This document shows positions 1-3,000 of a DNA stretch of 64,000 nucleotides, in pieces. Each line of letters starts with the position of its first letter. Positions within the stretch are counted from its first letter, which is position 1. The stretch is from the NCBI RefSeq assembly GCF_055900595.2, contig NZ_CM148325.1; one strand, 5' to 3'. Position numbers: made by a program.

Positions 1-3000
1 GTGGCTGGTCATCCTCTCAGACCAGCTAGGGATCGTCGCCTAGGTGAGCCGTTACCCCACCTACTAGCTAATCCCATCTGGGCACATCCGATGGCAAGAG
101 GCCCGAAGGTCCCCCTCTTTGGTCTTGCGACGTTATGCGGTATTAGCTACCGTTTCCAGTAGTTATCCCCCTCCATCAGGCAGTTTCCCAGACATTACTC
201 ACCCGTCCGCCACTCGTCAGCGAATCAGCAAGCTGATTCCTGTTACCGTTCGACTTGCATGTGTTAGGCCTGCCGCCAGCGTTCAATCTGAGCCATGATC
301 AAACTCTTCAATTTAAAAGTTTGATGCTCAAAGAATTAAACTTCGTAATGAATTACGTGTTCACTCTTGAGACTTGGTATTCATTTTTCGTCTTGCGACG
401 TTAAGAATCCGTATCTTCGAGTGCCCACACAGATTGTCTGATAAATTGTTAAAGAGCAGTGCCGCTTCGCTTTTTCTCAGCGGCGCGGGGTGTGCATAAT
501 ACGCTTTCCCGCTACAGAGTCAAGCATTTATTTTTGCTTTCTCTGCCGAAGTTCTCAGGAGAACTCCGCTGACCCGGCGGCGTGTTTGCCGTTGTTCCGT
601 GTCAGTGGTGGCGCATTATAGGGAGTTATTCCGGCCTGACAAGAGGAAATTTAAAATAATTTTCCGACCGCGCATTTTTTCAGCAAAAGCCCCGTTAATG
701 TGCCATAAAACAAGCAATTTGCCGTTTTTGCAACCGTAATCACACTTCCTGGTGGCATACTAAGGAGGAATAAAAAGAAAAAGGAAGATTAGTAATGCCT
801 TTAAGCGCACAACAGTTAGCTGCACAGAAAAACCTTTCGTATGTTCTGGCTGAGAAGCTGGCGCAACGGATCTTAAAAGGTGAATATGAACCCGGCACCA
901 TTTTGCCTGGTGAGATTGAGCTGGGCGAGCAATTTGGAGTGAGTCGTACAGCGGTACGCGAAGCGGTTAAAACGTTAACGGCAAAAGGGATGGTTTTACC
1001 GCGACCACGAATTGGTACCCGGGTCATGCCACAATCAAACTGGAATTTTCTTGATCAGGAATTGCTTACCTGGTGGATGACAGAAGAGAACTTTCATCAG
1101 GTCATCGATCACTTTCTGGTTATGCGTATCTGTCTGGAGCCGCAAGCTTGCCTACTGGCTGCAACGGTTGGCACCGCGGAACAGAAGGCGCATCTCAATA
1201 CGTTAATGGCCGAAATGGTGGCATTAAAAGAGAACTTTCGCCGTGAACGCTGGATTGAGGTCGATATGGCCTGGCATGAGCATATCTATGAAATGAGCGC
1301 CAATCCGTTTTTGACCTCATTCGCCTCGCTCTTCCATTCGGTTTATCACACTTACTTCACGTCAATTACCAGCGACACAGTGATAAAGCTGGATCTGCAC
1401 CAGGCGATTGTTGATGCGATTATCCAAAGCGATGGCGACGCGGCATTTAAAGCTTGTCAGGCGCTGCTACGCTCACCTGATAAGTGACACCCCGATAACA
1501 GGACATTGAATGAGCGATAAAAAGAAGCGCAGTATGGCGGGTTTGCCGTGGATCGCGGCGATGGCCTTCTTCATGCAGGCACTTGATGCCACTATTCTGA
1601 ATACCGCCTTACCCGCAATCGCTCATAGCCTTAATCGTTCTCCTCTCGCGATGCAATCAGCCATCATCAGTTACACGCTGACGGTGGCGATGCTTATTCC
1701 GGTAAGCGGATGGCTAGCCGATCGCTTCGGTACGCGTCGCATATTTACCCTTGCCGTGAGTCTGTTCACATTGGGTTCTCTGGCCTGCGCACTTTCTAAC
1801 TCGCTACCACAGCTGGTTGTCTTCCGGGTTATTCAGGGGATAGGTGGCGCAATGATGATGCCTGTTGCTCGGCTGGCCTTACTGCGTGCTTATCCTCGTA
1901 ATGAGCTTCTTCCTGTATTGAATTTTGTCGCCATGCCGGGTCTGGTGGGGCCAATTTTAGGCCCCGTACTTGGCGGCGTGCTGGTCACCTGGGCAACCTG
2001 GCACTGGATATTTTTAATCAATATCCCCATAGGTATTGCCGGCCTTCTTTACGCGCGCAAACATATGCCCAATTTCACCACCGCACGACGCAGATTCGAT
2101 ATCACTGGCTTTTTGCTGTTTGGCCTCAGCCTTGTTCTCTTCTCAAGCGGAATAGAGCTCTTCGGTGAAAAGATTGTCGCCAGTTGGATTGCCTTGACGG
2201 TAATTGTCACCAGCATCGGGTTACTGCTTCTCTATATTCTCCATGCACGACGCACGCTAAACCCATTAATTTCATTAGATTTATTTAAAACCCGCACTTT
2301 CTCGATCGGTATAGTAGGCAATATTGCAACCCGTCTGGGGACCGGCTGTGTACCGTTCCTTATGCCATTGATGTTACAGGTAGGATTTGGTTATCAGGCG
2401 TTTATTGCCGGCTGTATGATGGCACCGACAGCGTTAGGTTCCATTATTGCAAAATCGATGGTTACCCAAGTCTTACGTCGTCTGGGCTATCGCCATACGT
2501 TAGTGGGGATCACGGTAATTATTGGGCTAATGATCGCTCAGTTCTCTTTGCAATCACCAGCAATGGCGATATGGATGCTGATCTTGCCGTTGTTTATATT
2601 AGGGATGGCTATGTCGACGCAATTTACCGCGATGAATACCATCACACTTGCCGATCTGACCGATGACAACGCCAGCAGCGGTAACAGTGTTCTGGCGGTC
2701 ACGCAGCAACTGTCTATCAGTTTAGGCGTTGCTGTAAGTGCGGCCGTCCTTCGCGTTTATGAAGGGATGGAAGGCACAACGACTGTCGAACAATTCCACT
2801 ATACGTTTATCACAATGGGCATTATTACTGTTGCTTCAGCAGCAATGTTCATGCTTCTGAAAACAACCGATGGTAATAATTTGATCAAAAGACAGCGTAA
2901 ATCTAAGCCGAACCGCGTTCCATCAGAATCGGAGTAAGTTGTAATCGTTGTTGCTGAAGGGTCGGTTGGGTTATCCGATGGATGAGTACATCAATCGCCA

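Follow-up and report, generated by a model that had tools for sequence, protein, structure and literature searches.

The window, by which we mean the whole 64,000-nucleotide stretch of contig NZ_CM148325.1 (NCBI RefSeq assembly GCF_055900595.2) that was analysed, is a piece of E. coli chromosome which, in the gene order given by the annotation of an identical strain, covers the rrnC–yieP–hsrA–rbs–kup–ravA–viaA–asnA–oriC–atp–glmUS–pst–tna–yidC–rnpA region. The mapped coordinates place 53 CDSs in the window, every one of them a clean ORF with a canonical start codon. Five of the 52 junctions are overlapping, four among the 43 co-directional junctions and one among the five convergent junctions, and ten of the 53 genes are involved. 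Table 1 gives the coordinates of the five overlaps, along with those of the viaA/asnA junction, a compact junction of the same kind which was absent from the original prediction.

Table 1. Coordinates of the overlapping and closely spaced gene ends in the window
Feature	Position	Strand	Description
hsrA (yieO; PGAP label 'mdtD')	1510..2937	+	475-aa DHA2-type MFS transporter; stop TAA at 2935-2937; from ORF, PGAP and K-12
rbsR	2903..3895	-	330-aa LacI-family ribose repressor; TTG start; stop TAG, read as CTA at 2903-2905
hsrA/rbsR overlap	2903..2937	both	convergent CDS overlap of 35 nt, read directly from sequence
ravA/viaA overlap	12519..12525	+	7 nt; ATGCTAA, with ATG as viaA start and TAA as ravA stop; ravA 11029-12525, viaA 12519-13970
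viaA (+)/asnA (-) stops	13968..13977		convergent stops, 4 nt apart
pstC/pstA TAATG	37894..37898	+	1-nt overlap (A, 37896); GAGGGGG upstream; pstC 36937-37896, pstA 37896-38786
mdtL/yidZ overlap	52462..52487	-	26 nt; mdtL 52462-53637, yidZ 51528-52487; YidZ residues 1-9 inside the mdtL 3' end
rnpA/yidD overlap	62878..62914	-	37 nt; rnpA 62878-63237, yidD 62657-62914; YidD residues 1-12 inside the rnpA 3' end

The original prediction had named these genes and placed the five overlaps, and on both points it was correct. The gene identifications agree with the ORFs, with the PGAP and K-12 annotation, and with the protein families: all ten proteins of the five overlapping pairs matched their expected Pfam families, and the seven of these ten that were scanned against NCBIfam all matched the expected models above the curated cut-offs. 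The 35-nt overlap between the 3' ends of hsrA (+) and rbsR (-) was borne out by the ORFs and the sequence, and the coordinates of the four same-strand overlaps were likewise confirmed from the sequence. A comparison with curated annotation, which the original prediction had proposed as a check, gave the same five overlaps in both sources: the curated record of K-12 MG1655 carries overlap lengths of 35, 7, 1, 26 and 37 nt, and the PGAP coordinates of a strain with 100% identity over positions 1400-4000 of the window agree with all five. The genes and their order are also the same in K-12 MG1655, and the junctions are without difference, while elsewhere the window strain carries extra islands, with lpf-O113 and effector-like genes replacing the bgl region. 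A 2.6-kb segment around hsrA/rbsR found matches in 5424 of 5426 complete E. coli genomes, several strains being 100% identical. The overlaps are thus already known from curated annotation, and the rbsR-hsrA pair has also been published at the transcript level.

In terms of frequency, about 27% of prokaryotic genes take part in overlaps (PMC10666635), and among overlaps 92% are co-directional and 7% are convergent (PMC2478687). The number of overlaps in the window is about the usual bacterial rate, with no excess over chance.

Same-strand overlaps and translational coupling

The four same-strand overlaps, which were compared with K-12 and with one other E. coli strain, are operon-internal, with the downstream start placed in or next to the upstream stop, such that ribosomes finishing the upstream gene may help translation of the downstream gene. 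Termination-reinitiation has been studied at junctions of -1 and -4 nt (Huber et al. 2023, PMC10666635). The pstC/pstA junction (-1) has exactly this architecture, and ravA/viaA (-7) comes close to it; moreover, pstC and pstA encode two subunits of one heteromeric ABC permease, a class that is enriched in such overlaps (PMC10666635). Judged by its architecture, a classic coupling arrangement is a reasonable reading of pstC/pstA, where a strong Shine-Dalgarno sequence, GAGGGGG, lies upstream, and of ravA/viaA. At mdtL/yidZ (-26) and rnpA/yidD (-37), in comparison, the start lies far upstream of the stop and the resemblance to the -1 and -4 junctions is loose. Termination-reinitiation was found to be a local event that fell steeply in a test of increased intergenic spacing (PMC10666635); the distances at these two junctions are backward, and the case for coupling is therefore weaker there, where it is only a possibility. 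In Napolitano et al., yidD and rnpA come up with regard to AGR codons and the ribosome-binding site of yidC, and not for the rnpA/yidD overlap.

The coupling put forward in the original prediction is thus reasonable for the four same-strand pairs on the basis of their architecture, but it is impossible for hsrA/rbsR because these genes are convergent. The accompanying argument that the overlaps support the chosen start codons did not hold, since a 3'-3' overlap is fixed by two stops alone and long overlaps are a flag for misplaced starts (PMC2478687). Shorter stop positions supported by proteomics, which had been named as a possible refutation, are not meaningful either, the first in-frame stop being the stop. 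It is the family models, and not the overlaps, that support the annotated starts of yidZ, viaA and yidD. The NCBIfam equivalog NF007581 matches residues 1-318 of YidZ, whose HTH_1 domain begins at residue 10, just past the overlap; the equivalog model for ViaA matches from residue 1; and the Pfam domain of YidD covers residues 10-75. In RnpA, the domain match covers residues 6-111 of 119.

The hsrA/rbsR junction across Enterobacteriaceae

The 35-nt overlap contains the last 11 codons and the stop of hsrA on the + strand and the last 11 codons and the stop of rbsR on the - strand, with codon positions 1, 2 and 3 of hsrA paired with positions 1, 3 and 2 of rbsR, respectively. For HsrA, the NCBIfam model NF007799 matches residues 13-465 only of the 475, and Pfam MFS_1 matches residues 17-406; for RbsR, the NCBIfam equivalog NF007743 spans the whole protein (residues 1-330), and the match to Pfam Peripla_BP_3 extends to residue 329. 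Over the 121 nt around the junction a single base differs from K-12 and lies outside the overlap, the 35 nt and both protein tails being identical. Of 5426 complete E. coli genomes, 5413 contain the junction at an identity of at least 95%; among the 12 records listed, 11 have both genes annotated across it, the twelfth match having partial query coverage.

A scan with HsrA, in which one genome was kept per species, provided 80 Enterobacteriaceae loci, and the overlap lengths were obtained by walking each reading frame to its first stop. The results showed that hsrA and rbsR are adjacent and tail-to-tail in all 80 species, and that their stops are at most 3 nt apart or overlapping, with the length of the overlap falling into several discrete states. 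The two stops are separated by a gap of 2-3 nt in ten species; they overlap by 4 nt in 24 species (typically TTAA, the two stops sharing bases), by 9 nt in six species and by 24 nt in one species. The 35-nt overlap is found in 34 species, in Escherichia, Salmonella, Citrobacter, Enterobacter and Leclercia, and five species of Lelliottia and Huaxiibacter have a 53-nt overlap, which equals the 35-nt state with RbsR lengthened by 6 codons. The short states occur in Franconibacter, Siccibacter, Buttiauxella, Pluralibacter and Kluyvera.

The difference between these states lies mostly on the HsrA side. RbsR has 330 aa in 75 of the 80 species and 336 aa in the five species with the 53-nt overlap, while HsrA has 461-467 aa where the stops are separated by a gap or overlap by 4 or 9 nt and 475-477 aa where they overlap by 35 or 53 nt, the 35-nt state going together with a C-terminal tail of HsrA that is about 10 residues longer. 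With the rbsR stop as anchor of the compared sequences, the frames of hsrA in the 4-nt and 35-nt states were 1 nt apart. E. coli retains, within TC-TAA-G, the TAA that serves as the hsrA stop in the short state, but it no longer lies in frame, so that translation of hsrA runs on to the next stop, 32 nt further. From these comparisons we conclude that the 35-nt overlap is a lengthening of HsrA at its C-terminus, across an rbsR end that is fixed. As for polarity, we infer from the distribution of the states among the genera that the short state is probably ancestral and the 35-nt state derived; the same distribution may be fitted by a single origin of the 35-nt state with reversals or by two independent origins.

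We then consider which of the two frames is constrained within the shared 35 nt. In 35 sequences that carry the 35-nt overlap, variability tracks the codon phase of rbsR, the mean entropy being 0.14 at first, 0.22 at second and 0.54 at third codon positions, and the same sequences hold 25 variants of the HsrA tail and 10 variants of the RbsR tail. The amino-acid entropy of the HsrA tail is 0.84 in comparison to 0.24 for the rest of HsrA, i.e., the tail is 3.5 times more variable. A sliding-window test was carried out on a protein-guided codon alignment, in which ten of the 34 aligned sequences carry a 2-codon rbsR indel. In the species with the 35-nt overlap, the third-position entropy of the last 11 rbsR codons was 0.587, which is below all but one of 308 sliding windows (lowest 0.3%) and also below all 28 non-overlapping windows. 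For the same codons in the 40 species where RbsR alone is encoded, the wobble entropy was 1.244, at the 67th percentile. Synonymous variation in rbsR that is depressed only in the overlap-bearing species is the expected footprint of dual coding, although it is read from 11 sites in related sequences and a constraint at the RNA level could mimic it. The pattern speaks for an HsrA extension that is produced and under weak constraint.

Transcription across the junction and alternative accounts

Since the coding sequences of hsrA and rbsR overlap, each of the two transcripts necessarily runs into the other gene. No terminator-like site was found on the relevant strands in, or within several hundred nt of, positions 2903-2937 (scans of 2300-3600 and 300-6000), and the total of such sites for the region scanned was at the shuffled expectation; a bidirectional intrinsic terminator between the two genes was rejected on the basis of these scans. 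A stable RNA structure across the overlap was likewise rejected, the folding z-scores of -0.10 and 0.01 for the two strands being no better than those of shuffled sequences. The Rfam search gave no match at E <= 1 within positions 2400-3500; across the whole window it returned a 16S fragment and STnc410 only. As room for an intergenic terminator is never available, reading of the hsrA and rbsR transcription units into each other is unavoidable, and the two mRNAs presumably depend on Rho for their termination after they have passed out of their own coding frames. At the transcript level, ExcludonFinder (2025) lists rbsR-hsrA among 165 convergent transcript overlaps of MG1655 present in at least 50% of 58 RNA-seq samples, and asnA-viaA is also listed there as a convergent excludon (PMC12288877). 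The antisense interplay raised in the original prediction is thus supported to the extent that overlapping MG1655 transcripts have been published, while in the literature searched for this pair we found no regulatory effect or consequence of the overlap.

The listing brings up a different account, in which the arrangement is a selected excludon: the rbs operon would read into hsrA and yieP-hsrA into rbsR, and interference or RNase III cleavage of the duplex would set the ribose repressor and the transporter against each other. The pair does belong to the core MG1655 'excludome', and it shares with the published excludons a tail-to-tail position on opposite strands and overlapping transcripts (PMC12288877). 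Neither strand has an intrinsic terminator near the junction, and the close placement of the stops is kept in 80 of 80 species, so the arrangement itself could be selected rather than neutral; read-through would then tune both genes, and the longer HsrA tail could be a secondary effect that has since gained a weak function. These observations are offset by several others. Overlapping coding sequences make a transcript overlap unavoidable, and the listing by ExcludonFinder therefore adds little; excludons are defined by mutually exclusive expression, through interference or RNase III, whereas hsrA/rbsR matches them by arrangement and published transcripts only. The length of the overlap is not conserved, ranging from a gap of 2-3 nt up to an overlap of 53 nt, and the literature found holds no reciprocal expression data for the pair. 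We also know of no functional link between ribose regulation and HsrA, which counts against this account. Taken together, we consider a working excludon improbable; if true, it would link sugar regulation to a transporter.

Even less probable, to the point that we give it very little weight, is that some of the five overlaps are annotation artefacts, with the start of yidZ or yidD placed too far upstream or the stop of hsrA in error. Long overlaps are often due to mispredicted start codons (PMC2478687), and at mdtL/yidZ there is no obvious Shine-Dalgarno sequence for yidZ, for which an alternative TTG lies three codons upstream. However, artefacts are concentrated in overlaps above 60 nt (PMC2478687), and all five overlaps in the window are shorter than this. 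Among the 19 yidZ codons inspected, no in-frame ATG, GTG or TTG follows the start, and the YidZ family match already begins at the first residue, ahead of the HTH domain. The YidD domain begins within the overlap, and a start beyond the rnpA stop would truncate it. The stop codons are unambiguous, the position of the hsrA stop being common to 34 species and about 5400 E. coli genomes, and the dual-coding signature speaks for the HsrA tail being translated. The five overlaps are formed by genuine and conserved coding genes with independently supported ends.

Proposed origin of the overlap and its meaning

Our preferred explanation, to which as a whole we assign a probability of roughly 0.85, is that all five are short CDS overlaps of an ordinary kind, present in existing annotation, on a compact enterobacterial chromosome, that the rbsR frame probably dominates the shared 35 nt with the HsrA frame as a weak second constraint, and that the hsrA/rbsR overlap arose as a by-product. 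In this explanation the tail-to-tail overlap would originate from a labile 3' end of hsrA, in a pair of genes that stand stop-against-stop throughout Enterobacteriaceae. In Escherichia, Salmonella and Citrobacter, and in Enterobacter and Leclercia, a net-length change just before the old hsrA stop would have put this stop out of frame, and translation of hsrA would then have run on for some 10 codons, in antisense to the final 11 rbsR codons. The tail that HsrA gained in this way may be a tolerated hydrophilic addition, not covered by the family model and probably cytoplasmic.

Such an origin is similar to that of the convergent overlaps ascribed to an extended 3' end or a lost stop codon (Rogozin et al. 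2002, cited in Pallejà et al. 2008, and group iii of the latter; PMC2478687). As in those cases, one partner, here HsrA, has a longer C-terminus than the orthologues of other genera, and conservation of the overlap is confined to related genera. At 35 nt the present overlap is below the 60-nt class examined there, and no sequencing or annotation error is involved, the overlap being shared by 34 species and accompanied by the dual-coding pattern.

In general, the gene calls in the window agree with curated annotation, and the five junctions are of little wider importance. As the hsrA/rbsR pair illustrates, neither start codons nor translational coupling can be argued from a 3'-3' overlap. What the comparison across species adds is a modest refinement, namely a labile tail of HsrA, an rbsR end that is fixed and a footprint of dual coding, and it makes hsrA/rbsR a tidy textbook case of how convergent overlaps arise.

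Ends and name of the convergent pair

The annotated start of rbsR is a TTG codon 3 nt past the rbsK stop, and three codons further on the reading frame contains an ATG (LATMKDV...); the equivalog model for RbsR (NCBIfam NF007743), which covers residues 1-330 of 330, supports the longer form. At the other end of the gene, the TAG stop was lost in L033, L034, L037, L038 and L045, five loci of the HsrA scan that come from Lelliottia, from Huaxiibacter and from a single Enterobacter MAG; RbsR gains six residues there (e.g., ...ERGSVSAGGDL) and the overlap with hsrA is thus lengthened to 53 nt. 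In the PGAP annotation, hsrA is called 'mdtD' on the strength of the subfamily model NF007799, and this automatic name is misleading because the same locus is hsrA (yieO) in K-12, while the true mdtD is a member of the mdtABCD operon, located elsewhere.

Coordinates of the features in the window
Feature	Position	Strand
16S rRNA gene, 5' part	1-314	-
hsrA (PGAP 'mdtD')	1510-2937	+
rbsR TTG start	3893-3895	-
rbsB-rbsK hairpin and T run	4849-4871	-
viaA and asnA stops	13968-13977	+/-
mioC-mnmG spacer	16111-16488
STnc410	26679-26836	-
lpf-O113 operon	30587-35568
Genes replacing the K-12 bgl/yieL/cbr region	40400-47700
ShET2/EspL2-family gene	57205-59390

Other junctions and spacers

The stops of the convergent genes viaA and asnA are separated by only 4 nt, and this pair is among the published convergent transcript overlaps of MG1655 (PMC12288877). 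The junction was absent from those listed in the original prediction. The rbsB-rbsK spacer contains a strong hairpin, rich in GC and with a T run behind it, at the position where the K-12 annotation places the RbsZ (b4804) sRNA 3' end; no Rfam match was obtained at the hairpin. The enterobacterial sRNA STnc410 gave a full-length Rfam match of 185 bits in the atpC-glmU spacer. The mioC-mnmG spacer corresponds to oriC of K-12.

Window edge and regions differing from K-12

The window begins within a 16S rRNA gene, which accounts for the contig breaks that many related assemblies show immediately upstream of yieP. Between glmS and pstS, the window carries an inserted long polar fimbria operon, lpf-O113, which K-12 does not have; the final gene of the operon is an intact 357-aa ORF in the window, but its counterpart in strain E200086, a strain with 100% identity to the window over positions 1400-4000, is 5 nt longer and bears a frameshift in the annotation. 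Between phoU and yieH, type III effector-like genes stand in place of the bgl/yieL/cbr region of K-12, together with genes for a large hypothetical protein and for a protein with pentapeptide repeats. Between tnaC and mnmE lies an effector gene of the ShET2/EspL2 family, probably a pseudogene, since its reading frame is divided into ORFs of 492 aa and 221 aa.
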